This document shows, piece after piece, positions 12,837 to 40,022 of a stretch of 50,554 nt of DNA. The DNA is from an uncultured Candidatus Peribacteria bacterium (lineage in GTDB: Bacteria > Patescibacteriota > Gracilibacteria > UBA1369). The notes below the pieces were generated by a model, which was given only the letters and a program-made list of their open reading frames with translations, was not told where the DNA came from and ran no database searches. Both the position numbers and the translations under genes were made by a program. The stretch is from positions 1-50,554 of the forward strand of contig CAZOQT010000005.1 in the NCBI GenBank assembly GCA_964582265.1, given 5' to 3'. Within the stretch, counting starts at the first letter, position 1. Every line of letters starts with the position of its first letter.

Positions 12837-12839
12837 ATC

Positions 12840-14140: not shown

Positions 14141-14154
14141 GCTGAATCTCAAAA

Positions 14155-14179: not shown

Positions 14180-14186
14180 AACTAAA

Positions 14187-14753: not shown

Positions 14754-14758
14754 AAAGA

Positions 14759-14785
14759 TAATTACTAATTATTCATTACTAATTA
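14759..14785 (+). repeat. TAATTAY heptad leader motif (upstream of rpsN/Z)
   Basis: TAATTACTAATTATTCATTACTAATTA, 6 nt before the ATG. Confidence 0.7.
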
Positions 14786-14791
14786 AAGAAG

Positions 14792-15016: not shown

Positions 15017-15063
15017 AAAACAATCTACACAATTAACTATCAATAACTCCTAAGTATTAAAAC

Positions 15064-15450: not shown

Positions 15451-15455
15451 TCGCC

Positions 15456-15481
15456 ATTACTAATTATTAATTACTAATTGA
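15456..15481 (+). repeat. TAATTAY heptad leader motif (upstream of rplF)
   Basis: ATTACTAATTATTAATTACTAATTGA, 6 nt before the ATG. Confidence 0.75.
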
Positions 15482-15487
15482 ACCAAA

Positions 15488-16042: not shown

Positions 16043-16095
16043 AATAGATAGCATTAAGAAAAATCACTTACATTTACAAGAATCTTAAAGTCATT

Positions 16096-16446
16096 ATGAA
16101 AACATCACCAAAAATCACAGCTCGTGCAAATCGTCACAATCGCATTCGTGCCAAGGTTTCCGGTACTGCAGAAAAACCACGTCTTGTAATTTTCCGCAGT
16201 CTAGATAACCACTACGCTCAATTGATTGATGATGTTACAGGAAAAACTCTAATTTCTGCTTCTGACCTTAAATCTAAATCTAAGGACAAGAAAGCTGATC
16301 GCGCTAAACAAGTAGGTTTAGAAGTAGCAAAACTCGCGTTAGAGAAAAAGATCAATACATGCGTTTTTGATCGTAACGGTTACAAATACCACGGTCGCGT
16401 TAAAGCTATTGCTGAAGGCGCACGTGAAGGTGGCTTACAATTTTAA
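16096..16446 (+). CDS. rplR: 50S ribosomal protein L18
   Basis: 116 aa, [23 protein letters not shown] and [14 protein letters not shown] motifs. Confidence 0.97.
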
Positions 16447-16460
16447 GCCGATAAAAAAGT

Positions 16461-16489
16461 CTAATTACTAATTATTAATTACTAATTGA
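16461..16489 (+). repeat. TAATTAY heptad leader motif (upstream of rpsE)
   Basis: CTAATTACTAATTATTAATTACTAATTGA, 7 nt before the ATG. Confidence 0.75.
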
Positions 16490-16496
16490 TAAGAAA

Positions 16497-17117
16497 ATGG
16501 CAAAACCTCCAATTAACAAAAAAGGCAGAGCTCCAATGCATGAACAAAAAGAGTTCGAAGAAGAAGTAATACAAATTGATCGCGTAACTCGTGTAGTTAA
16601 AGGAGGTCGCAGACTTCGTTTCCGCGCTACTGTAGTAATTGGTAATAAAAAAGGTAAAGTTGGCGTAGGTATTGGCAAGTCAACTGAAGTTCAGGGAGCA
16701 ATCAAAAAAGCTATTGCTCAAGCCAAGAAGTCTTTGATTGAAGTTCCAATGATTGGACAAACCATTCCTCACCGAGTGGATATGAAATTCAAGAGCGCAA
16801 AATTAATTATTATGCCAGCTCGTCCAGGTACTGGAATTATTGCCGGAGGACCACTGCGCAAGGTAATTGAATTATCTGGTGTTAAAGATGTACTTAGTAA
16901 ATGTTTAGGCGCTAAGAATCGCTTGAATAACAGCCAAGCTGCTATCAATGCTCTTGCTGCGCTAAAAAGCATGCCATGGATCAAAAAGGCCGCTCCAGCA
17001 ACAGCAGCACATGCTGCTCCAGTTGTTGCTAAACCGGTTGCTCCTGTTGCAAAAGCTCCAGCTGAAGCTCCAAAGGCAAAAAAAGAAACTACCAACACTA
17101 AAGCTGCTAAAGCTTAA
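16497..17117 (+). CDS. rpsE: 30S ribosomal protein S5 with Ala/Pro-rich C-terminal extension
   Basis: 206 aa, IDRVTRVVKGGRRLRFRA core, then AAPATAAHAAPVVAKPVAPVAKAPAEAPKAKK tail. Confidence 0.96.
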   Translation: MAKPPINKKGRAPMHEQKEFEEEVIQIDRVTRVVKGGRRLRFRATVVIGNKKGKVGVGIGKSTEVQGAIKKAIAQAKKSLIEVPMIGQTIPHRVDMKFKSAKLIIMPARPGTGIIAGGPLRKVIELSGVKDVLSKCLGAKNRLNNSQAAINALAALKSMPWIKKAAPATAAHAAPVVAKPVAPVAKAPAEAPKAKKETTNTKAAKA

Positions 17118-17154
17118 GAGTCACATTATTTAATCAACTGTAACGCTCATCCCA

Positions 17155-17637
17155 ATGGACAAATTATTGAACTTAAAAAGCAAACCAGGTGCACGCAAAA
17201 AACGCAAGACTGTAGGACGTGGTAATGGATCCGGACACGGCACATATTCAACCAGAGGTGGCAAAGGTCAAACTGCTCGCACTGGTAGTGGCTACAAACC
17301 TGGGTTTGAAGGTGGTCAAACTCCACTTTATCGCAAGATGCCAAAACTTAAAGGTTTTAACAATATCAACCATATAAACTACCAACCGGTTAATGTTGAA
17401 AGCCTTAACATTTTTGATGACAACGAAGAAATCAATGTAGTTAAACTTTATGAAAAGAAACTGGTTAGCCGCAAAGACAAACCTGTAAAGGTTTTAGGCA
17501 ATGGCGAATTAACCAAAAAATTGACTGTTAAAGTAGATCGCGTTTCCGCTTCTGCAAAAGAAAAAATAGAAAAAGCAAAGGGCACAGTTCAAGAACTTAT
17601 GGCTAAAGAAAAAAAAGAGGCTGCAGAAACGAAATAA
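17155..17637 (+). CDS. rplO: 50S ribosomal protein L15
   Basis: 160 aa, GRGNGSGHGTYSTRGGKGQ motif. Follows rpsE directly with no L30 gene between. Confidence 0.96.
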   Translation: MDKLLNLKSKPGARKKRKTVGRGNGSGHGTYSTRGGKGQTARTGSGYKPGFEGGQTPLYRKMPKLKGFNNINHINYQPVNVESLNIFDDNEEINVVKLYEKKLVSRKDKPVKVLGNGELTKKLTVKVDRVSASAKEKIEKAKGTVQELMAKEKKEAAETK

Positions 17638-17698
17638 TCGGTAAACTTTAAAAAGTACTGATTTAAGTCATAAAACAAACTCTTAACTGCCCATTAAA

Positions 17699-18997
17699 AT
17701 GCTCAAGTACCTCCAACAAATCTGGAATTCTAAAGATCTACGTAAAAAGATCCTTTTTACTGTACTCATTCTGGTTACATTCCGTTTAATGGGACAAATT
17801 ACCATTCCGGGTGCTGACGTGAATGCTCTTCAGGCTATTTTCAACAAAAATCAGCTTTTAGGCATGTTCAGTTTATTAACTGGTGGTAGCGCGCATAACT
17901 TCTCCATCATTTTGATGGGGCTTTCTCCATATATTAATGCTTCCATCATCATCCAGCTTTTAACAGTTATTATTCCTAGACTGGAAAATATTTCCAAAGA
18001 AGGACAACAAGGACAAAGAAAGCTTAACCAATATACTCGCTGGTTGAGCTTACCACTTGCATTCCTACAGTCTTACGGCATGATTTTGATTTTGAACTCT
18101 CAATCCCCTGTTCCAATTTTACAAAATATATCTTCCCCAGCGGTAATTTTACCCGTTATGCTAACTGTAACAACTGGTACAGTGCTCTTAATGTGGTTAG
18201 CTGAACTTATTACTGAGTATGGCATTGGCAATGGTAGCTCCATGATCATCTTTGCCGGAATTATTGCTAGTATTCCAGAAACCATCGGACAAAGTTTAGC
18301 CTTATCTCAACAATCCTCAGATAAACTAATTCCATTTGTTATAATGATCTTAATTACCTTGGCTTTAACAATCACGGTAATTTTAGTAACAGAAGCACAA
18401 CGCAACATTCCAGTAAGTTATGCTGGACGCGGCGGACGTGGCGCAAATGAACATTCCAGTTTACCGATTCGCATCAATCAGGCAGGTATGGTTCCAATCA
18501 TCTTCGCAGTTTCTTTAATTACCTTCCCTGGAATTTTGGCTCAATTCTTCCAAAATTCAACTATCGGCTGGCTTAAAAATATGGCTAGTTTTATAGCTAC
18601 ATATTTTCAATCCAACAGCATTCCGTACGTAATTACATATTTCATTCTTGTAATTGCCTTTACTTTCTTCTATGTAGGCATCACTTTTAACCCAGAACAA
18701 GTAGCAGAAAATATTCAAAAACGCGGTGGATACATTCCGGGCATTAGACCAGGAAAACAAACAGCAGAATATCTTGCTGGCATTTCTAACCGTTTAAATT
18801 TGTTTGGTGGCCTATTTATAGCATTCATTGCTGTCTCTCCTATTGTGATTCAAATGATTTCCAGCCGTTTAAGTTTTGGCAGTGTACCAACTATCATCAC
18901 TGGCGCAGGACTTATTATTATAGTTGGCGTTGTACTTGAGGTTATTCGCTCAATTAACGCGCAACTGGTAATGCACGATTACAATAAGCTCTACTAA
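17699..18997 (+). CDS. secY: Preprotein translocase subunit SecY
   Basis: 432 aa, 10-TM pattern, GIGNGSSMIIFAGI motif, operon position. Confidence 0.97.
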   Translation: MLKYLQQIWNSKDLRKKILFTVLILVTFRLMGQITIPGADVNALQAIFNKNQLLGMFSLLTGGSAHNFSIILMGLSPYINASIIIQLLTVIIPRLENISKEGQQGQRKLNQYTRWLSLPLAFLQSYGMILILNSQSPVPILQNISSPAVILPVMLTVTTGTVLLMWLAELITEYGIGNGSSMIIFAGIIASIPETIGQSLALSQQSSDKLIPFVIMILITLALTITVILVTEAQRNIPVSYAGRGGRGANEHSSLPIRINQAGMVPIIFAVSLITFPGILAQFFQNSTIGWLKNMASFIATYFQSNSIPYVITYFILVIAFTFFYVGITFNPEQVAENIQKRGGYIPGIRPGKQTAEYLAGISNRLNLFGGLFIAFIAVSPIVIQMISSRLSFGSVPTIITGAGLIIIVGVVLEVIRSINAQLVMHDYNKLY

Positions 18998-18999
18998 AA

Positions 19000-19635
19000 A
19001 TGGACATTGTTTTGTTTGGTATTCAGGGCTCCGGAAAAGGTACTTTAGGTAAAGCTCTTGCCGAAAAGTATAATTTGCAGATTTTTGAAACGGGGTCAGT
19101 ACTAAGAAAACTTTCCCAAGAAACTTCACCGTTGGCTCAAAAAGTAAAAAGCATTATTGAAGCTGGCCATTTGGTTCCTACCGAAGTGGTGATGGAAATC
19201 ATTGAAGATTTCATGAAAAACCTTAAACCTGGAATAAACGTTTTATTCGATGGCATCCCAAGAAAAATGGATCAGGCGGAAGCTTTTGATAAAATCATGC
19301 AAAAAAATAATCGTAATTTTGTTGGGTTACTGCTTGATATTTCTCAGGAAATAGCGATTCAAAGATTAACAACTCGTCGTCTTTGTAAAAATTGTAAGAC
19401 TGTTTATCCAGCTGCTTATTCAAACTCAAAATGTGAAAAATGCGAAGGAGAACTTATTACCAGAAGTGATGACAACCCGGAGAGTATAAAAACACGTTTA
19501 CAGGCATATTTCACCGAAACCATACCAGTCATTGATAAATATAAGAAAGAAGATAAAATGATCGTAGTGGACGGCACAAAAAGCATAGAAGAAGTTCAAA
19601 GTATTGCTTTTGAAGCACTCCAGGGAAAACTTTAA
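19000..19635 (+). CDS. adk: Adenylate kinase (zinc-lid type)
   Basis: 211 aa, GIQGSGKGT P-loop, CKNC...CEKC lid. Confidence 0.95.
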   Translation: MDIVLFGIQGSGKGTLGKALAEKYNLQIFETGSVLRKLSQETSPLAQKVKSIIEAGHLVPTEVVMEIIEDFMKNLKPGINVLFDGIPRKMDQAEAFDKIMQKNNRNFVGLLLDISQEIAIQRLTTRRLCKNCKTVYPAAYSNSKCEKCEGELITRSDDNPESIKTRLQAYFTETIPVIDKYKKEDKMIVVDGTKSIEEVQSIAFEALQGKL

Positions 19636-19643
19636 TTTCACTT

Positions 19644-20420
19644 ATGAGAATTTGGAAAGAAGGCTCTCTTCGCATCGGCATTAAAGATGCAAGAGAAATT
19701 CAATTAATGCGTGAAGGTGGAAAAATTTTGGGGTCGATCTTACAGCAACTTAAGTCAATGATCGTACCTGGAATTACCCCATTGGAACTTGACCAAAAAG
19801 CGGCCGAATTGATGGCTATAAATAAAGTAAAACCATCATTTTTAGGTTATCATGGATATCCCAACGTGCTTTGCATTAATGTTAATAATGTAGTTGTACA
19901 TGGAATTCCAAATAAAACACCATTATGTGAAGGAGATATTGTGACGATTGATTGTGGGGTAATCCATGAAGATTTTCATACCGATGCCGCAATTCAAACA
20001 GGCGTAGGAGAAATTACTCCGGAACTTGCAAAATTTTTAAACACAGCAGAAAAAGCTTTATACAAAGCCATAGAAACAGTTAAGCCAGGAATAAGAATCA
20101 GAGCAATCAGTGGAGTCATTCAGGATATTGTGGAAAAAGGCGGTTACGGTGTTGTTAGGGATTTGATTGGTCATGGTATTGGCCACAAATTGCATGAGGA
20201 CCCACCGGTTCCAAATTTCCGTGACGAACATGGTCCAATGTTACAGGTAGGTATGACCATCGCGATTGAACCAATCATTTGCATGGGCAGTCATAAAGTT
20301 AAAACTTTGCGCGACGGTTGGACCATTGTAAGCGCAGACGGACGGCCAGCAACTCAGATCGAACACACTATTGTAGTAACCCCAAAAGGAGCCGAAATTT
20401 TGACCAAAAGCCAGGATTAA
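19644..20420 (+). CDS. map: Methionine aminopeptidase type I
   Basis: 258 aa, VVHGIP, D..H..TI and GHGIGHKLHE metal ligand motifs. Confidence 0.96.
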   Translation: MRIWKEGSLRIGIKDAREIQLMREGGKILGSILQQLKSMIVPGITPLELDQKAAELMAINKVKPSFLGYHGYPNVLCINVNNVVVHGIPNKTPLCEGDIVTIDCGVIHEDFHTDAAIQTGVGEITPELAKFLNTAEKALYKAIETVKPGIRIRAISGVIQDIVEKGGYGVVRDLIGHGIGHKLHEDPPVPNFRDEHGPMLQVGMTIAIEPIICMGSHKVKTLRDGWTIVSADGRPATQIEHTIVVTPKGAEILTKSQD

Positions 20421-20475
20421 AAAAATGCCAAGATTGGGCTTGCAGAAGCACCTTAAAAAGCCTCAAAAAAATCCC

Positions 20476-20504
20476 TTGCATTGTTAAAAAATGTCATGTA
20501 AAAT
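20476..20504 (+). promoter_or_regulatory. Sigma70-like promoter for infA (TTGCAT-N17-TAAAAT)
   Basis: Hexamers at 20476-20481 and 20499-20504. Same -35 hexamer and spacing as the tuf promoter. Confidence 0.55.
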
Positions 20505-20565
20505 CCTAACGCTCTTTTGAAATTTTTTGGGCAAAAAACGTCTTAAATAAGCCTAATCCGTTCTT

Positions 20566-20874
20566 ATGGCAAAAGAGGTAATCGAACTACTGGGAGTAGT
20601 GGTTGAGGCGCTTCCAAACGCCACTTTCCGCGTTAAACTCCTGGATGAAAGATACCCAAATCATATCGTTCTCGCACATGTTTCCGGAAGAATGCGCATA
20701 AATTACATTCGCATTTTACCAGGCGACAAGGTCACTATTGAGCTGACTCCGTACGATCTGACCAAGGGCCGCATAATTTTTCGCCACAAAGAAGGCGCAA
20801 AGTTTGAAACAGCTGCGCCAGAACCAGTAGCGCCAGCCGCACCAGAACCGGCAAAAGAATCAGGGGAACAATAA
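20566..20874 (+). CDS. infA: Translation initiation factor IF-1 with ~30-aa Ala/Pro/Glu-rich C-terminal extension
   Basis: 102 aa. The S1-like core ([12 protein letters not shown]...[33 protein letters not shown]) is followed by [28 protein letters not shown]. Confidence 0.95.
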
Positions 20875-20892
20875 TCTCGTTAACTTATAAAT

Positions 20893-21006
20893 ATGAAAGT
20901 TCGTTCATCAGTAAAGAAAATTTGTGATAAATGCAAAGTAATTCGCAGAAAAAATGTTGTTCGTGTAATTTGTATTACAAAAAAACATAAGCAGCGACAA
21001 GGTTAA
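20893..21006 (+). CDS. rpmJ: 50S ribosomal protein L36 (not in ORF track)
   Basis: Hand translation gives [37 protein letters not shown]. Canonical L36 sequence and position. Confidence 0.95.
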
Positions 21007-21103
21007 TTGGGACGGGATCTTTAGGAGAAGCAGTGGGCACTCCTCTATCTTCACTCCAATGTTATAAACATTTTCATACATCATTAATCATTAATCAAAA
21101 AAA

Positions 21104-21487
21104 ATGGCAACAGTAGCTCGTATCGCAGGTGTTACTCTCCCCCAACAAAAAAGAGTTGAAATCGGCTTAATGGCTATTTATGGAATTGGTAGAAATCTGA
21201 GCAATCAAATTTTAGAAGAGGCTAATGTAAACCCCGATACTCGAGTTAAGGATCTGACAGAAGAAGAAATCGGCCGTCTCCGTGAAATTATTTCTAAGCA
21301 GGCAACAGAAGGTGACCTTAGAAGAAAAATTCAATTAGATATCAAACGTCTTCAGGAAATTGGTTCTTACCGTGGCTTTCGCCATCGCAAGGGCTTGCCT
21401 GTTCGTGGTCAACGCACACGTTCTAATGCGCGCACAAGAAAAGGCAAGAAGAAGACAGTTGCAAACAAGAAGGTTGTTACTAAATAA
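21104..21487 (+). CDS. rpsM: 30S ribosomal protein S13
   Basis: 127 aa, [25 protein letters not shown] start. Confidence 0.97.
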
Positions 21488-21496
21488 TAAATAATC

Positions 21497-21528
21497 ATTA
21501 TTAATTACTAATTATTAATTACTAATTA
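21497..21528 (+). repeat. TAATTAY heptad leader motif (upstream of rpsK)
   Basis: ATTATTAATTACTAATTATTAATTACTAATTA, 2 nt before the ATG. Confidence 0.75.
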
Positions 21529-21530
21529 TC

Positions 21531-22022
21531 ATGGCAGACGAGAAGACCATTGAAGCAAAATCCGAGGTAAAAGAAGAAATTAAAGCTTCAGAAGCAAAAG
21601 CGGAAAAAGCTGAAACCAAAAAGGCTGGAAAGGCTGTTAAGGTTGCAAAGGGCAAAAAGAAACCAAAGCGCCGCCTTTTACAAGAAGGAAAAGCTTATAT
21701 TCAAGCAAGTTACAATAACACTATTGTTACAATTACAGACATGAACGGTGAAGTTATTGCTTGGAGCAGCGCCGGTTCAAATGGATTTAAGGGCGCTAAA
21801 AAGGCCACTCCTTACGCAGCTCAGATTTCTGCAGAAAACGCTGTAACTAAGGCTAAAGTTTATGGCTTGGAAAAAGTTCACGTCTTCATTAAGGGTGTTG
21901 GTACAGGTCGCGAACAATCAATCCGTGGTTTACAGGCAGGTGGAGTAAATATTGAATCAATTACCGATTTAACACCAATCCCACACAATGGTTGCCGTCC
22001 ACGCAAATCAAGAAGAGTGTAA
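21531..22022 (+). CDS. rpsK: 30S ribosomal protein S11 with ~40-aa Lys/Glu/Ala-rich N-terminal extension
   Basis: 163 aa. Core [18 protein letters not shown]...[13 protein letters not shown]. The N-terminal K/E/A-rich part is in frame from the ATG at 21531. Confidence 0.93.
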
Positions 22023-22056
22023 ATTTAAAGTTCCCAGGGTGGAACACAAACAATTG

Positions 22057-22084
22057 CTAATTATTAATTACTAATTACTAACTA
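22057..22084 (+). repeat. TAATTAY heptad leader motif (upstream of rpsD)
   Basis: CTAATTATTAATTACTAATTACTAACTA, 3 nt before the ATG. Confidence 0.75.
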
Positions 22085-22087
22085 AAC

Positions 22088-22699
22088 ATGTCACGTTATA
22101 CAGGTCCCAAATGCCGTTTATGCCGCCGCGAAGGAGTTTCCCTATGTGGAAAGGAAAAATGCGCAATTAAAAAGAAGAACTATATTCCAGGTATGCACGG
22201 CCCAAAAGGCAGCTTTGCAAAGAAATCTGAATATGCTCGTCAATTACGTGAAAAGCAAAAATTGAAGAGACTTTTTGGTATTACTGAACGCCAACTTTCA
22301 AACTATTTTGAAAAAGCTGGTAAGATGAAGGACATCACTGGTGATGCACTTTTAAAACTACTTGAATATCGTTTAGACAACGTGATTTATCGTTCAGGCA
22401 TTGCTAAAACCAGAAATCAGGCACGTCAAATGGTTAATCACGGACTTTTTAAAGTTAATAACATAAAGATTAATATCCCTTCCCTTCAGATGAAGGTTGG
22501 TGATAAATTTGAAGCAATTGCCCGTATTAAAAAATCAAAGCTTTTCGCAGATCTCGAAAAGCAAAAATATGCTCCAGCAAAATGGCTGAAGGTTGATTAT
22601 AAAACCTTGAATGGAGAAGTAACTCGTCCTATTGAAAAGGAAGAGCTCGAAAGTATCATTCAGAGCAACTTGATCGTTGAGTATTACTCAAAAGCTTAG
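22088..22699 (+). CDS. rpsD: 30S ribosomal protein S4
   Basis: 203 aa, SRYTGPKCRLCRREG start, S4 RNA-binding domain. Confidence 0.97.
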   Translation: MSRYTGPKCRLCRREGVSLCGKEKCAIKKKNYIPGMHGPKGSFAKKSEYARQLREKQKLKRLFGITERQLSNYFEKAGKMKDITGDALLKLLEYRLDNVIYRSGIAKTRNQARQMVNHGLFKVNNIKINIPSLQMKVGDKFEAIARIKKSKLFADLEKQKYAPAKWLKVDYKTLNGEVTRPIEKEELESIIQSNLIVEYYSKA

Positions 22700-22784
22700 T
22701 CTAAGCTCTTAGACTAAATTAAGCTATAGCAATTATTCCCCCGCTGAGGCGGTGTGGAAAATAACCCCTAACCCCCTTTCTAGA

Positions 22785-23762
22785 ATGCATCAGATTCAAG
22801 AAGAAATCGGCATCCCAAAGATTAAAACTGAGAGAATCAGTAATAATCATGCCATTTTCACGGTTAGTCCTTTACCTCCAGGATATGGAATGACCATTGG
22901 TAATTCTTTCCGCCGTGTACTTTTGTCTTCTTTACCAGGTGCAAGTGTAACTGGAATTAAGATCGATGGCGTTAGTCACGAATATTCCACAATCAAGGGT
23001 GTTAAAGAAAGTGTTTTGGATTTAACTTTGAATTTGAAACTTCTTCAAATCAAAAAAACATCAAAAGAAGCTTCAACTTGCACACTTCACGTTACAAAAG
23101 AAGGTCCAGTTTACGCAAAAGACATTAAGTGTCCAAGCGACATCGAAATTCTAAACGGCGATCTATACCTTACTACCCTTGAAAAAGGCGCAAAATTAAA
23201 CATGGAGTTACGCGTTGAAAAAGGTGTTGGCTACATTCCTGCTCATTTACGCCAAAAAGAAGAAGGTGTTGATCCTGGAATGATTATTCTTGATGCTATT
23301 TATTCTCCTGTTAAGAAGGTACGTTACGATGTAGAAGCTACTCGCGTAGGCCAAATGACTAACCTGGATAAGCTCACAATGGAAGTACTCACAGATGGTT
23401 CAATTACTCCAGAAGATGCAGTTAAATTTGCTTCTAACATTCTTCAATCTTACTTCAACCTCTTCAATCAGGAAAACGCAATGGTTGAGGCTGATTACAT
23501 GTCAGATTTCAAAAAGATCGTAGAAAAAGAAAAAGCTGAAGAAAAGAACAAACCAGCTCAAGAAAGCTACACACCAATTGAAATTCTCGGTTTTTCTCCA
23601 CGCACTTTGAATGCTTTGATCAACGGAGGAATCGGTTCAATCGAACAATTATCAAAATGCACTGAAAGTAAATTGACTAATCTCCGTGGTTTTGGTAAAA
23701 AGGCACTCACTGAGGTAAAAAATGCACTTAAGGCCAAGAACCTAACGTTATCAGAAGAATAA
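22785..23762 (+). CDS. rpoA: DNA-directed RNA polymerase subunit alpha
   Basis: The ATG at 22785 (MHQIQEEIGIPKIK...) aligns with the usual alpha N-terminus; the GTG at 22752 in the ORF track is probably an over-extension. GNSFRRVLLSSLPGAS motif, C-terminal HhH domain. Confidence 0.93.
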   Translation: MHQIQEEIGIPKIKTERISNNHAIFTVSPLPPGYGMTIGNSFRRVLLSSLPGASVTGIKIDGVSHEYSTIKGVKESVLDLTLNLKLLQIKKTSKEASTCTLHVTKEGPVYAKDIKCPSDIEILNGDLYLTTLEKGAKLNMELRVEKGVGYIPAHLRQKEEGVDPGMIILDAIYSPVKKVRYDVEATRVGQMTNLDKLTMEVLTDGSITPEDAVKFASNILQSYFNLFNQENAMVEADYMSDFKKIVEKEKAEEKNKPAQESYTPIEILGFSPRTLNALINGGIGSIEQLSKCTESKLTNLRGFGKKALTEVKNALKAKNLTLSEE

Positions 23763-23782
23763 TTCTAAAAGAGCAAGCCACC

Positions 23783-23813
23783 ATACTAATTATTAATTAC
23801 TAATTACTAACTA
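23783..23813 (+). repeat. TAATTAY heptad leader motif (upstream of rplQ)
   Basis: ATACTAATTATTAATTACTAATTACTAACTA, 2 nt before the GTG. Confidence 0.75.
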
Positions 23814-23815
23814 AA

Positions 23816-24169
23816 GTGAGACATCAGAATACTAAATCCAAGCTCAGCCGACCACGAGATGCACGTCGTCTACTCCTCGGCAACCTGGCAACATCTCTCA
23901 TCATTCATGAGAAAATCCAGACTACCAAAGCTAAAGCAAAAGCTGTGCAACCACTCGTTGATCGCCTGATTTCTGTAGCTAAAACAAAGGAAAAGACTCT
24001 TGCTATTCGTGAACTAAATCGCGTTTTACACAGCGAACTTAGTGCCAAAAAAGTTATGGAAGAACTAACAAAACGTTACGCAGAAAGAACAAGTGGTTTT
24101 ACCAGAGTTATTCCAATTAAATTCCGTGCAGGAGATGCAGCTTTGCTAGTTCAAATAGAACTGGTGTAA
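23816..24169 (+). CDS. rplQ: 50S ribosomal protein L17
   Basis: 117 aa, GTG start, MRHQNTKSKLSRPRDARRLLLGNLA start. Confidence 0.96.
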   Translation: MRHQNTKSKLSRPRDARRLLLGNLATSLIIHEKIQTTKAKAKAVQPLVDRLISVAKTKEKTLAIRELNRVLHSELSAKKVMEELTKRYAERTSGFTRVIPIKFRAGDAALLVQIELV

Positions 24170-24193
24170 AGAAAACGCCCACAGGGCACCATC

Positions 24194-24225
24194 ATTACTA
24201 ATTATTAATTACTAATTACTAACTA
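24194..24225 (+). repeat. TAATTAY heptad leader motif (upstream of rplM)
   Basis: ATTACTAATTATTAATTACTAATTACTAACTA, 2 nt before the GTG. Confidence 0.75.
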
Positions 24226-24227
24226 AA

Positions 24228-24659
24228 GTGAAAACGTACTCCCCAAAACTAGAAGACATACAGCGCCAATGGTTTGTTGCTGATGTAAAAGGTAAGACTC
24301 TTGGAAAAGTTGCTACCAAAGTCGCTAATATCTTAAGAGGCAAAAACAAAGCAATGTTTTCTCCTCACCTTGATTGTGGCGATTTTGTAATTATTTTGAA
24401 CGCCAAAGAAATCCGTTTAACTGGTACAAAATCAACTTCAAAGCTTTATCATCATCACACACGCTACGGAAACGGTTTACGCACAACAACTCCTGCTGAA
24501 CTTATCCGCACTGGAAAACCTGAAGATATTCTTTTCCACGCTGTAGCTGGTATGATTCCTCAATCAAAACTCAAAAAAGATATTTTGAAGAAACTCAAGA
24601 TTTTTGGTGGCACAGAGCACAAACATACAGCACAAGAGCCAAAAACTTTGGAACTATAA
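24228..24659 (+). CDS. rplM: 50S ribosomal protein L13
   Basis: 143 aa, GTG start, WFVADVKGKTLGKVAT and GDFVIILNA motifs. Confidence 0.96.
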   Translation: MKTYSPKLEDIQRQWFVADVKGKTLGKVATKVANILRGKNKAMFSPHLDCGDFVIILNAKEIRLTGTKSTSKLYHHHTRYGNGLRTTTPAELIRTGKPEDILFHAVAGMIPQSKLKKDILKKLKIFGGTEHKHTAQEPKTLEL

Positions 24660-24667
24660 AGCGCAAC

Positions 24668-24698
24668 TACTAATTATTAATTATTAATTACTAATTGA
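24668..24698 (+). repeat. TAATTAY heptad leader motif (upstream of rpsI)
   Basis: TACTAATTATTAATTATTAATTACTAATTGA, 5 nt before the ATG at 24704. Confidence 0.75.
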
Positions 24699-24703
24699 AG
24701 AAA

Positions 24704-33331: not shown

Positions 33332-34240
33332 CTAAAATTTATGTAATTTACCAACCAGATCACGATGATACTGGCCAAATTCGGTAATTTTACGCGCCCT
33401 ATTATTGTCCACAACCGGGCCCTCTTTACACATTCTTTCACCGTTTGGATCTGTACAGCATTGCCCACAAACCCCAAATCCGCACTTCATGTAGCGCTCA
33501 ATAGAAACCTGCGCATTAATTTTGGCCGCAAAGCACATATCAGAAATGCGCTTCATCATCATTTCCGGACCACAGGTATACACGCAGTCTATTTTTGCCG
33601 ATTTCACAGCCCTTGCTGCCTTTGCGGATTTAGCAGCCTTATGATCATTAATCAGCTTTTCCAAAATCAGCGTATTGTAGCCTTTTAATCCAACAGATCC
33701 ATCATCGGTCGTGATATGCAATTTCACGTTCTTTAATTTTTTAATACGATTGATGTAAAGCAAATGTTCTTTACTTCTCGCCCCAATCACAAAATCGACC
33801 TTACAGCCGGCTTTAACTGCAGTCACAGCCAAATTATAAAGTGGCGCCGCACCATATCCACCCGCCATCATAACCAGGTGTTGTCCCTTTTTAAATTCAC
33901 CGCCATCTCCAGCCGTAAAATGAGTACCATATGGACCTCGCACCCCTACCAAATCACCAGGCTTTAAAGTGTGCATGCGTTTAGAAAAAGGCCCAACCGC
34001 AAACATTGTCACCCAGAATTCTTTGCCATCATCATAAGCAATACTCATCGGCTTTTCATCTACACGCGGCAACCACAAATTAACAAATTGGCCAGGCTTT
34101 GACGGCTTACCATCCGCCGTTTTTAATTCATGCTTGAACACGAAAGTCTTAACGTAAGGCGTTTCTGTGATGATTTTTTTAATTGGGATTGATTTGGGGA
34201 TGTCGAATTTTTTTGAAATTTGAGCCATTGTTTCGCGCAT
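33332..34240 (-). CDS. pyrK: Dihydroorotate dehydrogenase electron-transfer subunit
   Basis: 302 aa, FAD/NAD-binding fold (MMAGGYGAAPLY) and C-terminal 2Fe-2S motif CGFGVCGQCC. Adjacent to class 1B pyrD. Confidence 0.88.
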   Translation of the reverse strand: MRETMAQISKKFDIPKSIPIKKIITETPYVKTFVFKHELKTADGKPSKPGQFVNLWLPRVDEKPMSIAYDDGKEFWVTMFAVGPFSKRMHTLKPGDLVGVRGPYGTHFTAGDGGEFKKGQHLVMMAGGYGAAPLYNLAVTAVKAGCKVDFVIGARSKEHLLYINRIKKLKNVKLHITTDDGSVGLKGYNTLILEKLINDHKAAKSAKAARAVKSAKIDCVYTCGPEMMMKRISDMCFAAKINAQVSIERYMKCGFGVCGQCCTDPNGERMCKEGPVVDNNRARKITEFGQYHRDLVGKLHKF

Positions 34241-35193
34241 TAATTAAAATTCTGAAATTTTTTGGAGTAATCGCCGTTATGAGCTGTTCCACGCAGTTCA
34301 TCCAAATTCTTGATTTTATGCGCTTTACCCCACTGTTTCATTTCATTGGCGATCAGCCCAAAACAGGTTATATCTCGATAATAAACCGCTGTTCCAACGC
34401 CCACCAAAGTCGCACCAACCATAATCATTTCAAGAGCGTCTTCACCGGTTAAAATGCCGCCTGTTCCAATAATTGGAGTCTTTGGCACAGCTTTGTGAAT
34501 GTCGTAAACAGCCTTAATTGCTATTGGTTTGATGGCTGGACCGCTCACTCCGCCAACTTTGTTCGCCAAAATCGGTTCGCGGGTTTCCAGGTCTATCATA
34601 AGCCCAGGACCGACTGTGTTTATGGCTGTAATTCCATCCGCGCCGGCATCAACAACCGCGCGCGCAATTTCGGCAATGTTTAATACGTTTGGGCTTAACT
34701 TGATCACAATCGGCAATTTTGTGCGCGCACGAACCGCTGCAGTTACCGCAGCCGCATCCACTCTGGAACAGGAAAATGGCTTACCGAATTCATCTTCCAC
34801 ATTCGGACAAGAAATATTCACTTCAATAATGTCTGGCTTAAGCGCAGAAACCATTTCTGCCACTTCCGCAAAATGTTCAATTTTAGATTCAACAATATTG
34901 GCAATTAATGGAGCGGGTTTTTCTTTAAGATACTCACCAATTTCAATATGAGCCTTTTCTATTCCCGCATCCGGAAGCCCAACCGCATTAAGCATGTAAT
35001 GGTCGTTGGCAATAATAACCGGATTAGGATGCCCCTGATGCCCCTCTCGCCAAATTGATTTAGTGGTTACACCGCCCGCGCCGCCCTTTTTGACAACGCT
35101 TTTTAGGCTTGCACCGGTCACACCCAAAACACCAGATGCCAACACCAGAGGGTTCTTAAACTTCACGCCGCAAAAAGTAGTTTCTAGGTTCAT
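34240..35193 (-). CDS. pyrD: Dihydroorotate dehydrogenase, class 1B catalytic subunit
   Basis: 317 aa, FKNPLVLASG, NISCPN and IIGTGGI motifs. Its stop overlaps the pyrK start by 1 nt. Confidence 0.93.
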   Translation of the reverse strand: MNLETTFCGVKFKNPLVLASGVLGVTGASLKSVVKKGGAGGVTTKSIWREGHQGHPNPVIIANDHYMLNAVGLPDAGIEKAHIEIGEYLKEKPAPLIANIVESKIEHFAEVAEMVSALKPDIIEVNISCPNVEDEFGKPFSCSRVDAAAVTAAVRARTKLPIVIKLSPNVLNIAEIARAVVDAGADGITAINTVGPGLMIDLETREPILANKVGGVSGPAIKPIAIKAVYDIHKAVPKTPIIGTGGILTGEDALEMIMVGATLVGVGTAVYYRDITCFGLIANEMKQWGKAHKIKNLDELRGTAHNGDYSKKFQNFN

Positions 35194-35333
35194 GGATTTT
35201 GCTTATAAATTGGCACTGCCCCGCGCGCATTTATTTAAGCACTTTTACGAGCCCAACTCAATGGTAGATTTTAGAAATTTTTAATGAAGAAAGCTTGATT
35301 TGGAATTAATGAAATCACCTGCTTTTCTTAATA

Positions 35334-35361
35334 TTGACATATAATTTAAATATGGTACAAT
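35334..35361 (+). promoter_or_regulatory. Near-consensus sigma70 promoter with extended -10 (TTGACA-N16-TGgTACAAT)
   Basis: TTGACA at 35334-35339, TG at 35353-35354, TACAAT at 35356-35361. Faces the high-GC ORF. Confidence 0.55.
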
Positions 35362-35367
35362 CCCAAC

Positions 35368-35640
35368 TCTGTTATGCTTTAACAGCATGCAGAAGCCTTG
35401 CTCTTTAAAAATTGAGAGTTTTGAGATGCTTTCTAGCTTATGTGAGCAGCAAATTGCCAAATTCATTTGGTAGCTTGTTGCTCACACAAGTTCTACGAAA
35501 GGAAAATACTTGTGACGAGCGATGATCGCATTTGCGACCGGTTTCGCACTTCCGCGATCTCTCATTACATGAATGTTACTAACTGGACCCTAGCCGCTTG
35601 ACGTGGCTGGGAGGAATTCATTCCGAACGAGGACAATGAC
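35368..35640 (+). ncRNA. Hairpin-rich ~270-nt leader or candidate ncRNA upstream of the high-GC ORF
   Basis: Long imperfect hairpin at 35441-35486 (TGTGAGCA...CCAAA-ttca-TTTGG...TGCTCACA). ACAAGT/ACTTGT stem at 35486-35513. Nested GATCGC[GCGA-ccggtt-TCGC]GCGATC at 35524-35559. No convincing ORF. Confidence 0.4.
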
Positions 35641-36102
35641 ATGAAGACCATGACCGTTCCCGAGGTGATTCTGGCTGTCTCGACCGACTGCGGCGCATTC
35701 TTCGGCGAGGCGCGCTGCATGAGGATCAAGCCGGATGGCGAGATCCTCTACATCGACGAGACGGACGTCGGCACCATCAAGCTGTCCCAGGTGTCCGGCG
35801 TCGACATCCGCGCGGCATACGTCCTCGAGGACGGCCGCGCAGGTCTCGCGATCTTCGGTCGGATCACGGTCGACCTCCTGCCGCTCGTGCGCGAGATCGC
35901 CAAGAACGCCGGCAAGTACGGCAAGTTCAAGATCTGGAGGTGCTCGGCGCGCCGGACCACCGAGGTCACGCTCGTGACGACCAACGAGACCAGCGCGTTG
36001 TTGACCAAGAACTATTCTGACGTGGATCTCGCGTTCGACAACAACGGGAACCCCCAGTTGGAGGCCTTCGACAAGGAAGGAAACCTCGTCACGCTGTTCT
36101 AG
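35641..36102 (+). CDS. Orphan 153-aa protein of foreign (high-GC) composition, function unknown
   Basis: 26 of the first 30 codons end in G/C (tuf: 12 of 30). A hand-counted 60-nt sample is 37/60 G+C, against 24/60 in pyrD. GAGGA Shine-Dalgarno at 35629-35633, 7 nt before the ATG. A GC-rich terminator hairpin follows. Confidence 0.75.
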   Translation: MKTMTVPEVILAVSTDCGAFFGEARCMRIKPDGEILYIDETDVGTIKLSQVSGVDIRAAYVLEDGRAGLAIFGRITVDLLPLVREIAKNAGKYGKFKIWRCSARRTTEVTLVTTNETSALLTKNYSDVDLAFDNNGNPQLEAFDKEGNLVTLF

Positions 36103-36118
36103 ACGACGCGCTGCCACG

Positions 36119-36155
36119 GACGCCGCGGGGGCGACGCAATCGTCCCCGCGGCGGA
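36119..36155 (+). terminator. GC-rich stem-loop after the high-GC ORF
   Basis: CGCCGCGGGG(gc)GACG-caat-CGTCCCCGCGGCG: 13 bp with one bulge and no T-run, in the style of high-GC organisms. Confidence 0.6.
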
Positions 36156-36179
36156 CCGCCGCACTCTCAACTCTCAATT

Positions 36180-36450
36180 AAATGCTTTCGTTAAACCCCT
36201 GCTTGCAGGAGGTGACTACGAGAGGGCTAGGCATCGCGTCCCCCATACCGAAAGGTCGTGGGGGCGCTTTGCTATGCACCCCACCCACACAAGTTTTGCA
36301 CAACTTTCAAAAATGGCTGTCGGGGGTTTTTACAGCAGCGCTAAAAATGGCAAGCAAAAGCCACAAGCACACATGCCGCGCGCATGCGCACAAATACTCG
36401 AGAATACAAACCCATGTACACCACATGCACACATACCAGCTCAACTAAAA
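36180..36450. ncRNA. Structured, GC-elevated non-coding segment (candidate ncRNA; strand undetermined)
   Basis: GCG(t)CCCCCA-[ACC-GAAA-GGT]-TGGGGGCGC at 36237-36268, with a GNRA loop. AAGTT/AACTT hairpin at 36291-36306. GCTGT-cgggggttttt-ACAGC at 36316-36336. CA/CATG-rich near-palindrome at 36367-36391. Confidence 0.35.
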
Positions 36451-36457: not shown

Positions 36458-36793
36458 TTACTCTTTATTAATCTTATCTTCCAAATCCCTCAACAACTCA
36501 TCCGCCCTACGAACATTTTCCGCTGAAAATGGCGCATTCAAAACACCCACAACCTGATCCAGCAATTTACCAATTATCTCGCCAGGTTCAATACCAACAA
36601 CACTTTCTACACCCTGCTTCTTTGCCAAAGAATCATAAACCCTAGCTAATCTCTTTCTTAAATCCTTATCAATCTGACCAAATTCATCAATTTCCCTAGC
36701 TTCATCCTTTACAAAAACACCTGATCCTTCCTCTGCACTTGCCATATCTTCCAAGACTTCATCATCACAAACAGCGCCATCGATTACTGACAT
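36458..36793 (-). CDS. Hypothetical acidic protein, 111 aa
   Basis: Host-like composition, upstream of and co-oriented with the island. No family recognised. Confidence 0.5.
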   Translation of the reverse strand: MSVIDGAVCDDEVLEDMASAEEGSGVFVKDEAREIDEFGQIDKDLRKRLARVYDSLAKKQGVESVVGIEPGEIIGKLLDQVVGVLNAPFSAENVRRADELLRDLEDKINKE

Positions 36794-36865: not shown

Positions 36866-38272
36866 TCACCCCACAAACTCGACCTCTTTGCCAGGCCATC
36901 TGCCAAATTTATCGCGCCACTCATAATTAAGTTCGCCGGCAACAAAAGTCATAACCGGAAAGCCCTTCAACACCCAATTATGGAATGGCGACCAGTCAAC
37001 CTTAGTCCACAAATAGCGATGGCAAATGCGCTCCTCCAAATCAAGATCCACCACCGTTAAATCGGCATCATAACCGACCTCAATCGCACCTTTATGCGCG
37101 ATTCCAAACAAGCGCGCCGGATTAGCCGCGCACAGTTCAACCACTTTTTGCAAAGTTATAACCCCGGCATTCACTTCTGTTAATAAAAGCGGCAACATGG
37201 TCTGAACGCCCGGAACACCACTTGGCGCCTGCTCGTACGGCAACTGCTTTTCTTCAAGAGTATGCGGTGCGTGATCAGTCGCAATCATATCCACCGTACC
37301 GTCCTTTACCGCTTCCCAAAGGGCCACCTGGTCATGCGCAGACCTAAGCGGCGGATTAACCTTTACCAAATTTCCGTATTTTTCATAATCCTGATCAGTC
37401 AAAAACAAATGATGCGGAGTAACCTCCACACTCACATTTTGCTGTAAAGCTTTAGGCCCGCCATTTTTAAATTTACGGATGGATTCCAATTCCAACGCGC
37501 TCGAAACATGGCAAATATGCACGCGCGCGTCATACTTTTTAGCCAAATGCAGGACTTCTTTAACCGCCTCGTGCGCGCACTCTGCCGCGCGAATTTTGGA
37601 ATGGGTCGCCGCTTCTGCCCGCGCCAAAGATCCACCGTGTTCCGCTTCATATTTTTTAGCGTGCTCATCAATGCAACTGTTTAATTCCGCATGAACCGCT
37701 AACAGATGGGCATTTTTGGACTCGCCCTCCGGACCTTGCGGCCCTGCGTTTTCCGCCATGAACTTTTCCAGATCCTCTTTTTGATCCAGCAGAAGCCCAC
37801 CCGTGGAACTCCCCATAAAAATTTTCACACCGGCAATGTTTTTTAAATCCTTAATTTCTTCTACGTTTTCCCTCATCGCGCCAACATAAAAACCATAATT
37901 AATAAGCGCCTGTTTACCAGCCAATTTGCGCTTTTCATTCAAAGCTTTTTCATCGATTGTGGGCGGATTAGTATTCGGCATTTCCAAAACCGTGGTCACT
38001 CCACCAGCCAGCGCCGCCTTTGAACCGGTCAGCCAATCTTCTTTTTCCGGATTTCCCGGAGTTCTAAAATGCACGTGCACATCAATCAAACCTGGAAGTA
38101 AATATTTGCCTTCCAGATTGATAATCTTTTGCGAATTACCCATCGCTCCACCCAAATTCAACTCCTTGCCCCGTTGCACCTCCACAATTTTACCATCACT
38201 AATTATCACCGATCCCCAAAAAATTTCATTCGGCGTAACAATTTGCGCGTTAGTAAGGGCAAAAATCTTCAT
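36866..38272 (-). CDS. pyrC: Dihydroorotase (cyclic amidohydrolase family)
   Basis: 468 aa, GLIDVHVHFRTPG metal motif, ATDHAPH motif, pyr context. Has an internal ~40-aa insertion. Confidence 0.85.
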   Translation of the reverse strand: MKIFALTNAQIVTPNEIFWGSVIISDGKIVEVQRGKELNLGGAMGNSQKIINLEGKYLLPGLIDVHVHFRTPGNPEKEDWLTGSKAALAGGVTTVLEMPNTNPPTIDEKALNEKRKLAGKQALINYGFYVGAMRENVEEIKDLKNIAGVKIFMGSSTGGLLLDQKEDLEKFMAENAGPQGPEGESKNAHLLAVHAELNSCIDEHAKKYEAEHGGSLARAEAATHSKIRAAECAHEAVKEVLHLAKKYDARVHICHVSSALELESIRKFKNGGPKALQQNVSVEVTPHHLFLTDQDYEKYGNLVKVNPPLRSAHDQVALWEAVKDGTVDMIATDHAPHTLEEKQLPYEQAPSGVPGVQTMLPLLLTEVNAGVITLQKVVELCAANPARLFGIAHKGAIEVGYDADLTVVDLDLEERICHRYLWTKVDWSPFHNWVLKGFPVMTFVAGELNYEWRDKFGRWPGKEVEFVG

Positions 38273-38870: not shown

Positions 38871-40022
38871 ATGCAAAACCCATTTATATCAGTCAGAAAC
38901 GGTTTCATAAAATTTGGGTATAAAACTTTTCTTAAACCAATTTTCTTTAAACGTGATCCAGAAGACGTACACGACTCCATGAATAAAGTTGGTAAAATTT
39001 TAGGCAGATTTGCCTTGGGCAGAGGCTTAACCAAAGCCATGTTTTATTATAAAAACCCAGCACTTGAACAAAATATTCTTGGCATTAAATTTCCAAATCC
39101 AATCGGACTGGCAGCGGGATTCGACAAAAACGCCGAACTTACCCAGATCTTGCCGGAAGTCGGTTTTGGCTTTGAAGAAGTTGGATCCATAACCGGTGAA
39201 TACTGTGCCGGAAACCCAAAACCTCGTCTTTGGCGTTTAAAAAAATCAAAAAGTTTAGTAGTTTACTATGGCCTTAAAAACGACGGCTGCGAAAAGATTT
39301 CCGCCCGCCTTGCAGAGCAAATCCAAAAACGGCCTTTTAAATTTCCGGTAGGAATCAGCATTGCCAAAACCAACAACGCTCAAACTTGCGAAACGCAGGC
39401 CGGAATAAAAGATTACGTTAAGGCTTTCAAGCACTTCACGCATATTGGCGACTACATCACAATCAACATCAGCTGCCCAAACGCCTTTGGCGGCGAACCT
39501 TTTACAGAACCACATAAACTGGAAGCGCTCTTAACCGAAACCGATAAAATTCCTTGCAACAAACCAATTTTCTTAAAAATTTCGCCGGATCTATCAAAGG
39601 AACAACTCGATCAAATTTTACAAATTGTCAGCAAACACAAAGTTGACGGCATCATCTGCGCCAACCTCACCAAAAAAAGAGAAAACCATAAAATTCACAA
39701 AGATGATTTTATGCCAGAAGTGGGAGGTATAAGCGGAAAAGTGCAGGAAGATCTTTCTAACGAACAGATCCGTTACATTTATAAAAAGAGCCACACGCTA
39801 CATCGCAAACTTGTGGTTATTGGCTGCGGCGGGGTTTTTACGGCCGAAGATGCCTATAAAAAAATAAAAGCCGGCGCGTCACTTATCCAGCTCATTACCG
39901 GTATGATTTACGAAGGGCCACAAGCCATCAGCAGCATCAATATGGGACTCGCTGAACTGCTTAAAAAAGACGGGTATAAAAATATCAGCGAAGCCGTAGG
40001 GACCTTTGAGGTTGGCCATTAA
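38871..40022 (+). CDS. pyrD: Dihydroorotate dehydrogenase, class 2 (quinone-type)
   Basis: 383 aa. N-terminal extension, then GLAAGFDKNAE, EVGSITG..CAGNPKPRLWRL, NISCPN and GCGGVFTAEDAY motifs typical of class 2. Confidence 0.88.
   Translation: MQNPFISVRNGFIKFGYKTFLKPIFFKRDPEDVHDSMNKVGKILGRFALGRGLTKAMFYYKNPALEQNILGIKFPNPIGLAAGFDKNAELTQILPEVGFGFEEVGSITGEYCAGNPKPRLWRLKKSKSLVVYYGLKNDGCEKISARLAEQIQKRPFKFPVGISIAKTNNAQTCETQAGIKDYVKAFKHFTHIGDYITINISCPNAFGGEPFTEPHKLEALLTETDKIPCNKPIFLKISPDLSKEQLDQILQIVSKHKVDGIICANLTKKRENHKIHKDDFMPEVGGISGKVQEDLSNEQIRYIYKKSHTLHRKLVVIGCGGVFTAEDAYKKIKAGASLIQLITGMIYEGPQAISSINMGLAELLKKDGYKNISEAVGTFEVGH
40001..40013 (+). repeat. 13-nt hairpin unit GACCTTTGAGGTT (end of class-2 pyrD)
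   Basis: Read directly. Same family as the units at 30356 and 41474. Confidence 0.7.

Follow-up and report, generated by a model that had tools for sequence, protein, structure and literature searches.

Phage morons and small genomic islets are autonomous units that run from promoter to terminator and deviate in composition. The intervening sequences of 23S rRNA genes that encode S23p (PF05635) are sporadic in distribution; in these, an ORF is bracketed by an end stem, which is presumed to be a substrate of RNase III.

Leaders of rRNA operons carry their signals in the order boxB-boxA-boxC, and leader and trailer form a closing helix (PMC10250234). The boxA consensus, GYTCTTTAANA, is gamma-proteobacterial and not CPR (PMC5725501). 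Several non-rRNA genes are also controlled by boxA, including suhB, rpsJ and others (Baniulyte et al. 2017, PMC5725501). In boxA of the suhB/rpsJ type, the distance to the start codon is at most 50 nt, and the site represses translation or promotes Rho termination (PMC5725501). With respect to ribosome recruitment, rpsU (bS21) in Flavobacteriia is a rare gene with a strong Shine-Dalgarno (SD) sequence in an SD-blind lineage (PMC9976891, PMC13000453). In Bacteroidia, the set of proteins that sequester the anti-SD includes bS21 (PMC7797042). Loss of the anti-SD has been reported only for a subgroup of the Parcubacteria, and Peregrinibacteria are frequently without bS21 (PMC9297842).

The locus described here lies in a window of 50,554 nt, the whole stretch of DNA analysed, from an uncultured Candidatus Peribacteria bacterium. 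It is best described as a boxA-led unit, an islet or moron and a leader-trailer-bracketed RNA in one, a combination that was not found described. With moderate confidence, an ORF in this locus is read as a fast-evolving, lineage-restricted gene that is probably the cargo of an autonomous, rRNA-operon-like cassette of ~1 kb (35334-36277), antisense in the pyrC-pyrD spacer, for which we infer a mechanism involving Nus factors and RNase III.

Composition and ribosome-binding site of the ORF

The ORF and its SD sequence are listed below; allele A is that of the window and allele B that of contig L001.

35641..36102, plus strand: orphan protein-coding gene, 153 aa, ATG start, acidic product (pI 5.05), GC3 0.91
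35629-35633, plus strand: Shine-Dalgarno GAGGA, 7 nt 5' of the ATG, kept in allele B

The GC1/2/3 of the ORF is 0.55/0.40/0.91 and its overall GC is 0.62, against 0.40 for the window and a GC3 of 0.24-0.57 for the remaining 47 ORFs. The surrounding segment, 35526-36400, is the sole GC-rich island in the 50 kb and peaks at 0.665. An earlier, sequence-only reading of this DNA had described a high-GC ORF amid a low-GC host, in which 26 of the first 30 codons end in G or C compared with 12 of 30 in tuf, and a recount agrees with it. The same reading had located GAGGA 7 nt ahead of the ATG and had held that host genes are without an SD. The position was reproduced, and GGAG, GAGG, AGGA or AAGG was found at -20 to -4 in none of the 47 host ORFs. 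The predicted SD:anti-SD duplex of the ORF has an energy of -5.9 kcal/mol; in 45 host ORFs the mean is +0.38 (sd 1.9), and a single one of them reaches -5 or lower.

Genomic location

The minus-strand order of the neighbouring genes is pyrC (36866-38272), orf111 (36458-36793), the island, pyrD (34240-35193), pyrK and pyrE. Because the neighbours from pyrC to pyrE are all on the minus strand, the island lies antisense inside the pyr cluster. In the relatives L006, L015, L020 and L028, pyrC abuts pyrD, and other relatives have unrelated genes between the two. The content of the stretch upstream of pyrD varies across Peribacteria. Among ~26 Peribacteria pyrD loci, the GC-rich island was found in the window species and in L005 only. 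L005 (identical to L085) is the closest relative, with 87% amino acid identity in pyrD, and its cassette sits between pyrC and pyrD on a 159-kb contig of the sister species. The relatives of the window pyrD identify the host as a member of the Peribacteria/Peregrinibacteria (CPR). A GTDB scan with orf111 gave no match, and ARAGORN identified no tRNA or tmRNA.

The compositional boundaries of the island are sharp, as they would be in an assembly chimera or after contamination by a high-GC organism. However, L001-L004, contigs from four other samples, join the island to host orf111 and pyrD at the same points, and a related cassette is present between pyrC and pyrD in L005/L085. Samples with this population include those behind ERZ28620071, ERZ15185638, SRR30542699 and ERR8482633. 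An artefact is therefore so improbable as to be negligible, and contamination, which had been named as a possible objection to the sequence-only reading, is excluded.

Parts of the cassette

What the sequence-only reading overlooked is that the ORF is the cargo of a conserved cassette that includes a promoter, a boxA and a leader-trailer helix. The predicted parts, in addition to the ORF and its SD, are as follows.

35334..35361, plus strand: sigma-70-type promoter, TTGACA, 16-nt spacer, TACAAT; 11 of 12 matches and an upstream TG (extended -10)
35368..35393, plus strand: promoter-proximal hairpin in a boxB-like position, from predicted folds; the L005 hairpin is at the same place
35400..35410, plus strand: candidate boxA GCTCTTTAAAA, a perfect match to GYTCTTTAANA
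35410..35429, plus strand: leader strand of the leader-trailer helix (AATTGAGAGTTTTGAGATGC), predicted to pair with 36161-36179
35437..35490, plus strand: AT-rich, host-like leader hairpin with 26-nt arms, from predicted folds
35493..35628, plus strand: GC-rich structured 5' UTR, including a hairpin at ~35588-35612
36121..36153, plus strand: GC-rich hairpin with a 14-bp stem that follows the stop codon, kept in allele B
36161..36179, plus strand: trailer strand of the helix (GCACTCTCAACTCTCAATT), ~60 nt past the stop codon; allele B differs by one base
36207..36215, plus strand: perfect extended SD-like AGGAGGTGA with no start codon downstream
36236..36277, plus strand: last GC-rich hairpin (GAAA loop), then TTTGCTATGC; probable 3' end of the cassette

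From 36278 onward, the window is homologous to the L005 host backbone. A scan for canonical intrinsic terminators found none, and the hairpin at 36236-36277 fails as one too. The sequence GGAGGTGA occurs once in the window; the 5' UTR of L005 carries AAGGAGGTGA. Across 242 kb of Peribacteria loci, the motif was counted 10 times. The leader (35365-35645) has a fold z-score of -5.6. The z-score of the whole transcript is -10.6, a value inflated by the shuffling of AT-rich and GC-rich segments together. Inside the ORF, mRNA structure beyond codon usage is modest and inconsistent in the three alleles (z -2.35, -0.2 and -2.5). A strong selective pressure on mRNA structure inside the ORF was rejected, as z is ~-2.4 in only two of the three.

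boxA and the leader-trailer helix

The 50-kb window contains three matches to GYTCTTTAANA, against 0.64 expected, and the other two are inside host genes. From this expectation, ~0.002 matches would occur per 270-nt leader. The candidate boxA starts 39 nt past the -10 hexamer and is preceded by the hairpin at 35368-35393. The boxA-like site of L005, GTTCTTTGAAA, has one mismatch to the consensus. A 21-mer around boxA is also present 52 nt upstream of the true 23S rRNA gene in L088, an unrelated rRNA operon. The window and the loci retrieved contain no rRNA operon of the host. When the same 21-mer was used to scan metagenomes, the L005 species was recovered again, together with a genuine rRNA spacer and three matches that are probably unrelated. 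From the sequence and its placement we infer that 35400-35410 is a putative Nus-factor antitermination site. The extended boxA sequence of the leader includes CTTTAAAAATTGAGAG.

The predicted helix between 35410-35429 and 36161-36179 has an energy of -22.1 kcal/mol, which was reached by 11 of 500 shuffles (p ~0.02). In L005, the helix formed by 3012-3037 and 3859-3883, in which GAAAATTGAGAGATTT pairs with AAATCTCTCATTTTC after the ORF, has -21.2 kcal/mol, a value attained in 37 of 500 shuffles (p ~0.07). Minimum-energy folding predicted the long-range helix in each of the two species independently. Comparison of the two shows that the GAGAG/CUCUC core is invariant, and that the flanking pairs have changed yet are still paired. 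A hairpin, then boxA, then a 5' helix strand that the trailer is predicted to close resemble the layout of a pre-rRNA leader.

The cassette of the sister species

In L005, the order of parts is promoter, hairpin, GTTCTTTGAAA, helix strand, long leader hairpin, SD, ORF and 3' hairpins. The promoter, TTGACA-N17-TGaTACTGT, is at the equivalent place. The leader hairpin is longer and of different sequence, and occupies the same place as 35437..35490. An SD-like GGTGGAG lies 6 nt before the ATG of an ORF of 148-153 aa with GC1/2/3 of 0.62/0.41/0.83, and an analogous hairpin is found directly after the stop codon.

The host backbone on both sides matches L005 in reverse complement (window 36278-36323 to L005 2789-2834, and window 35230-35272 to L005 4939-4981). 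The cassette leader at 35395-35461 matches L005 3001-3070 on the strand opposite to these backbone blocks, and the cassette is thus inverted between the two species. The neighbours also differ, with orf111 beside the window cassette and a KilA-N gene beside the L005 island. Neither a recombinase in the cassette nor terminal inverted repeats at the breakpoints were found. A 10-nt direct repeat, CACACAAGTT, brackets the GC-rich part at 35483 and 36286, and one such repeat is expected by chance. An insertion with target-site duplication at CACACAAGTT seems unlikely, because a repeat of this length is expected by chance and is absent in L005.

The proteins of the window and L005 are related only marginally, with a BLASTP E of 0.011 over 47 residues. 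In shuffling tests, the L005 protein gave a z of 3-4 against the window allele and was not significant against P0001, the allele B product. The window and L005 proteins share their length, an NNGNP motif and, in low-confidence models, a similar order of predicted secondary structure. Since the homology is marginal, replacement of the cargo, and not its divergence, may lie behind the difference. On the sequences compared, it would either have diverged at least 5 times faster than housekeeping genes or have been replaced.

Searches for homologues

Protein searches of 5.8e9 clusters were carried out with three queries, one of which was the antisense translation, to allow for gene callers having picked the wrong strand. 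These searches, and an exhaustive HMMER search of 1.84e9 representatives, returned only allele B and the queries. In a viral collection, neither the DNA motifs nor the protein profile had a match. The ORF product had no significant match in Pfam, PHROGs, NCBIfam, PADLOC or PDB, either as a single sequence or as a profile. These family searches bear out the sequence-only reading, in which the protein could not be placed in any family, and no housekeeping family, which that reading had considered as an alternative, turned up. Searches of the whole window with Rfam at the gathering threshold gave no meaningful match and no rRNA, and at E<=10 the segment 35150-36500 had not even a weak SSU or LSU match. 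Two AlphaFold models were unusable (pLDDT 44 and 37).

Several described types of element were rejected for this locus. A TnpA of the IS200/IS605 family (~150 aa, with subterminal hairpins) is contradicted by the lack of a Pfam match and of an HUH motif, and by a protein without histidine. The differences between alleles extend across the whole ORF and all base classes and are not adenine-specific, which argues against the target of a diversity-generating retroelement. A 23S intervening-sequence protein (PF05635) was dismissed on the grounds of no significant Pfam match and no rRNA in the window. An integron cassette was discarded because the unit has its own promoter, and a GTTAAAC match is due to chance.

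Coding status and strand

The sole homologue found, that of allele B (P0001), has 153 aa and 62% amino acid identity. The window ORF and allele B differ by no indels over 462 nt at 73% nucleotide identity (27% divergence); the flanks, unlike the ORF itself, contain indels between alleles. The observed BLOSUM score was 516, against 373+/-20 when the observed substitutions were re-placed at random positions within the same codon class (z 7.2), and 26% of the simulated sequences remained stop-free. The dN/dS of the ORF is ~0.5 between the window and allele B. Conservative substitutions, absence of indels and this dN/dS demonstrate purifying selection at the protein level. Judged from these comparisons, ORF 35641-36102 is a genuine protein-coding gene under protein-level constraint. 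An origin as non-coding RNA is made impossible by the three-base periodicity (GC2 0.40, GC3 0.91).

The opposite strand carries a long shadow ORF, as the sequence-only reading had stated.

35590..36177, minus strand: shadow ORF, 195 aa, TTG start, judged to be no gene

If this antisense ORF were the real gene, it would share its transcript with the pyr operon; in the window its direction is that of pyrC and pyrD. A Logan gene call on L004 picks the shadow strand, the cluster of the 195-aa product includes an NCBI member (P0009), and none of the three alleles interrupts the antisense frame. However, open antisense frames are expected where the sense DNA is GC3-rich (~0.9), and amino acid conservation is lower in the antisense frame (52% vs 62% in the sense frame). 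In the equivalent L005 frame GC1 is, atypically, lower than GC2, and, as the L005 island is inverted, this frame is not co-directional with the pyr genes there. With its TTG start as a further point against it, the antisense ORF is very improbable as the real gene.

Divergence of scaffold and cargo

Alleles A and B were compared over the following segments.

5' UTR, plus strand, 35554-35632 covered by L001: 91% identity
ORF: 73% identity
3' UTR: 92% identity
Adjacent host spacer: 88% identity
First 90 nt of orf111: 100% identity

Divergence between the alleles sets in right after the SD and stops a few bases past the stop codon. The dN of the ORF, 0.28, is greater than the divergence of the presumably near-neutral spacer (~0.12), and dS is 0.54. 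The GC-rich non-coding scaffold diverges no faster than adjacent intergenic DNA. According to these alignments, the strains share a conserved scaffold, which can still be recognised, in inverted form, in the sister species, and the ORF diverges several-fold faster.

Better conservation of the non-coding parts would also fit a stable, structured RNA as the product, either a derivative or a mimic of an rRNA operon, with the ORF secondary or a relic, such as the surviving insertion ORF of a degraded rRNA gene. The boxA and the leader-trailer helix form the architecture of an rRNA precursor, the whole transcript has the strongly negative fold z-score given above, and perfect SD-like AGGAGGTGA motifs are present in the UTRs of both species. 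In addition, AAATTGAGAGTTT has a 13-nt likeness to what we take to be the 5' end of 16S rRNA. A degraded 16S gene was rejected, as it has this likeness only and no Rfam signal. Against an RNA product, no Rfam family was matched, not even weakly by SSU or LSU, and the fold score is inflated by mixed-composition shuffling. Codon periodicity, avoidance of indels and conservative replacements indicate selection at the level of the protein. An RNA product is thus improbable, and the reading of the ORF as protein-coding cargo is retained below.

Maintenance of GC3

C<->G swaps account for 27 of the 49 third-position differences between the alleles, so G/C is retained at third positions. GC3 is 0.83-0.92 across three deeply diverged alleles. 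The sequences indicate that GC3 is actively maintained rather than decaying. GC1 and GC2 are at or slightly below the values predicted by a regression on the loci, although the control set is thin. Decoupling of GC1/GC2 from GC3 was weak as an argument against a high-GC origin, because the control regression is almost without high-GC3 ORFs.

These results bear on plain horizontal transfer from a high-GC, SD-using donor, whether bacterium, plasmid or phage, recent enough for the gene to have kept its foreign composition, in which case the signals of the cassette would be incidental. A GC3 of 0.91 and an SD in a genome of 40% GC without SDs are what such a transfer would bring. The patchy spread, in the window species and L005 only among ~26 Peribacteria pyrD loci, is also in line with it, as are the variable content upstream of pyrD across Peribacteria and the KilA-N gene that adjoins the L005 island. 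However, no homologue beyond these Peribacteria loci was found in the 5.8e9 or 1.84e9 sequences or in viral contigs. Three alleles, which differ by a dS of 0.54 and by species-level divergence, hold their GC3 through G<->C swaps, the GC-rich UTRs diverge no faster than host spacer, and GC1/GC2 are at or slightly below prediction on the thin control set. Transfer of this kind is therefore considered unlikely. Of the foreign high-GC gene that the sequence-only reading had implied, the part that stands is a real, unplaceable, SD-bearing gene, and the donor origin is left without a homologue. The recent import that it implied does not agree with the GC3 held in diverged alleles and the lack of a high-GC homologue, and the search for a donor clade recovered only Peribacteria alleles, from which no donor can be named.

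Comparison with described systems

Like an rRNA operon leader, the cassette has a strong promoter, a hairpin, a boxA and then a 5' helix strand whose partner is past the payload, and its extended 21-mer is shared with a true 23S spacer boxA (L088). In contrast to rRNA operons, its payload is a 0.46-kb, SD-led protein gene that is Rfam-negative. The leader-trailer helix has ~17 bp, compared with 25-40 bp in Enterobacteriaceae. There is no boxC sequence in the cassette. With boxA-controlled non-rRNA genes the cassette shares a consensus boxA in the 5' UTR of a protein gene. It differs from them in that the boxA is 230 nt upstream and coupled to a leader-trailer helix, and in that the gene is an orphan and not a translation factor.

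The cassette is similar to morons and islets in being a self-contained unit of deviant composition that is patchy and reoriented in a relative. Unlike these, it is outside any recognisable prophage and combines a high GC content with an AT-rich host, where the opposite is usual, and the analysis established neither a canonical terminator nor a mobility gene or att/TSD signature. As in S23p-type intervening sequences, the ORF is sporadic and bracketed by a stem from the ends of the element; the cassette, however, lies outside an rRNA gene. The protein is not PF05635, because it has no Pfam match whatever. Finally, rpsU of Flavobacteriia is similarly a lone SD gene in an otherwise SD-less genome, which implies special translational control. 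The Flavobacteriia case depends on sequestration of the anti-SD by bS21, whereas Peregrinibacteria are frequently without this protein (PMC9297842), and no autoregulatory logic is evident for the cassette gene.

Proposed mode of expression

For the cargo of an rRNA-operon-like cassette, expression may proceed in four steps. Host RNA polymerase would initiate at the cassette's own promoter. NusB/S10 would then load at boxA, as they do on rRNA operons, and would shield a long, structured and poorly coupled transcript from Rho termination. In the third step, the leader-trailer helix would close the transcript as in pre-rRNA and could provide an RNase III site, protect the ends, or both, which would yield a stable mRNA. 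Ribosomes would finally be recruited via SD:anti-SD pairing, presumably because a GC-rich, folded mRNA cannot use the A/U-rich, unstructured leaders of the host. The SD is plausibly readable by the host, since reports of anti-SD loss are limited to the Parcubacteria subgroup and bS21 is frequently absent in Peregrinibacteria. The protein would be cytoplasmic and probably beta-rich. Its role is most likely accessory, of a conflict or interaction type, to which rapid evolution and the variable neighbourhood point weakly; this is the weakest step of the proposal.

A broader version, toward which we are tentative and somewhat doubtful, is that the cassette represents an expression module of Peribacteria of a kind not described before, in which a protein gene takes the place of rRNA, synonymous sites are driven to G/C to make the mRNA act as a stable structured RNA, the cargo is exchanged or evolves fast inside a conserved scaffold, and the transcript would be protected by Nus factors and matured by RNase III. 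A further extension, in which the SD and GC-rich codons would be tuned for expression in a high-GC partner organism, is far less likely.

Significance

If the mechanism holds, Nus/boxA antitermination and the leader-trailer machinery, which usually belong to ribosome biogenesis, would drive expression of a protein gene in a member of the CPR. If true, the extreme synonymous GC would be actively kept in an AT-rich genome and would not be the fading mark of a transfer. Gene callers trained on AT-rich CPR genomes may systematically miss such genes, because calls in the protein collection use the shadow strand for this allele. The locus would then be informative on the means by which atypical or foreign genes avoid silencing by Rho, on the translation of structured mRNAs in lineages without SDs, and on the persistence and diversification of orphan genes in reduced genomes.

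Sequence elements of the GC-rich cassette

A perfect, extended Shine-Dalgarno (SD)-like sequence, (A)AGGAGGTGA, lies in the 3' untranslated region (UTR) of the cassette and also in the 5' UTR of the related cassette at L005, the sister-species locus. The SD-like sequence is not followed by a start codon. The window has a single copy of the motif GGAGGTGA, and Peribacteria loci seldom carry it (10 occurrences in 242 kb).

Window 36207-36215: (A)AGGAGGTGA, cassette 3' UTR
L005 3142-3151: (A)AGGAGGTGA, cassette 5' UTR
Window 35483-35492 and 36286-36295: copies of the 10-nt direct repeat CACACAAGTT

The two copies of CACACAAGTT flank the GC-rich segment almost exactly, and the right copy falls within a backbone block that is conserved in L005, where the direct repeat has no equivalent. 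The repeat could be an insertion scar; one repeat of this kind would also be expected by chance.

Opposite to the 153-aa sense ORF is a 195-aa shadow ORF, and it was this ORF that was chosen in a Logan gene call on L004, a contig from another sample with the same island-host junctions. The cluster of the shadow-ORF product includes an NCBI member (P0009) whose contig is 50,554 bases long, as is the window, and no record was found with the exact sequence of the 153-aa sense product. On the island, gene callers that learned from the AT-rich host seem to choose the wrong strand.

Window 35590-36177, minus strand: 195-aa shadow ORF

Neighbouring genes and related loci

Between the GC-rich cassette and pyrD, L005 carries a KilA-N domain gene of host-like GC content (Pfam E 2e-18) that the window lacks. 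The cassette's 21-mer boxA-like motif also occurs in L089 (WNFU01106324.1), a metagenome contig of 70% GC. There it precedes, by approximately 330 nt, an ORF with an N-terminus like that of a transposase, putatively of the IS110 family. The L089 locus is probably unrelated.

L005 4079-4900, plus strand: KilA-N domain gene
L089 about 180-560, motif's orientation: 21-mer and ORF region
Window 36458-36793, minus strand: orf111
Window 34240-35193, minus strand: pyrD, class 1B-type, with a pyrK partner
Window 38871-40022, plus strand: second dihydroorotate dehydrogenase-like ORF (383 aa), longer than pyrD

The acidic 111-aa product of orf111 is encoded between pyrC and the island by a gene of host-like composition. 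It had no relatives in the GTDB scan and was found in the window species only; its only family matches, one to RelB/ParD antitoxin at E 0.008 and one to dTMP kinase at E 0.002, were weak and both below the cut-off. The two dihydroorotate dehydrogenase genes of the window lie less than 5 kb apart.

An AT-only motif in the ribosomal-protein cluster

The spacers of the ribosomal-protein cluster contain TTATTAATTACTAATT, an AT-only motif made up of 7-nt units, which occurs 37 times at two or fewer mismatches against 0.15 expected (window 8790-24700).

Window 8791, 11633, 14162, 15464, 16472, 21498, 21512, 22061, 23790, 24202 and 24681: example positions of TTATTAATTACTAATT

In the leaders listed for ORFs of the window, the motif stands just upstream of the start codon. 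TTATTAATTACTAATT may be the host lineage's SD-independent initiation or enhancer element.
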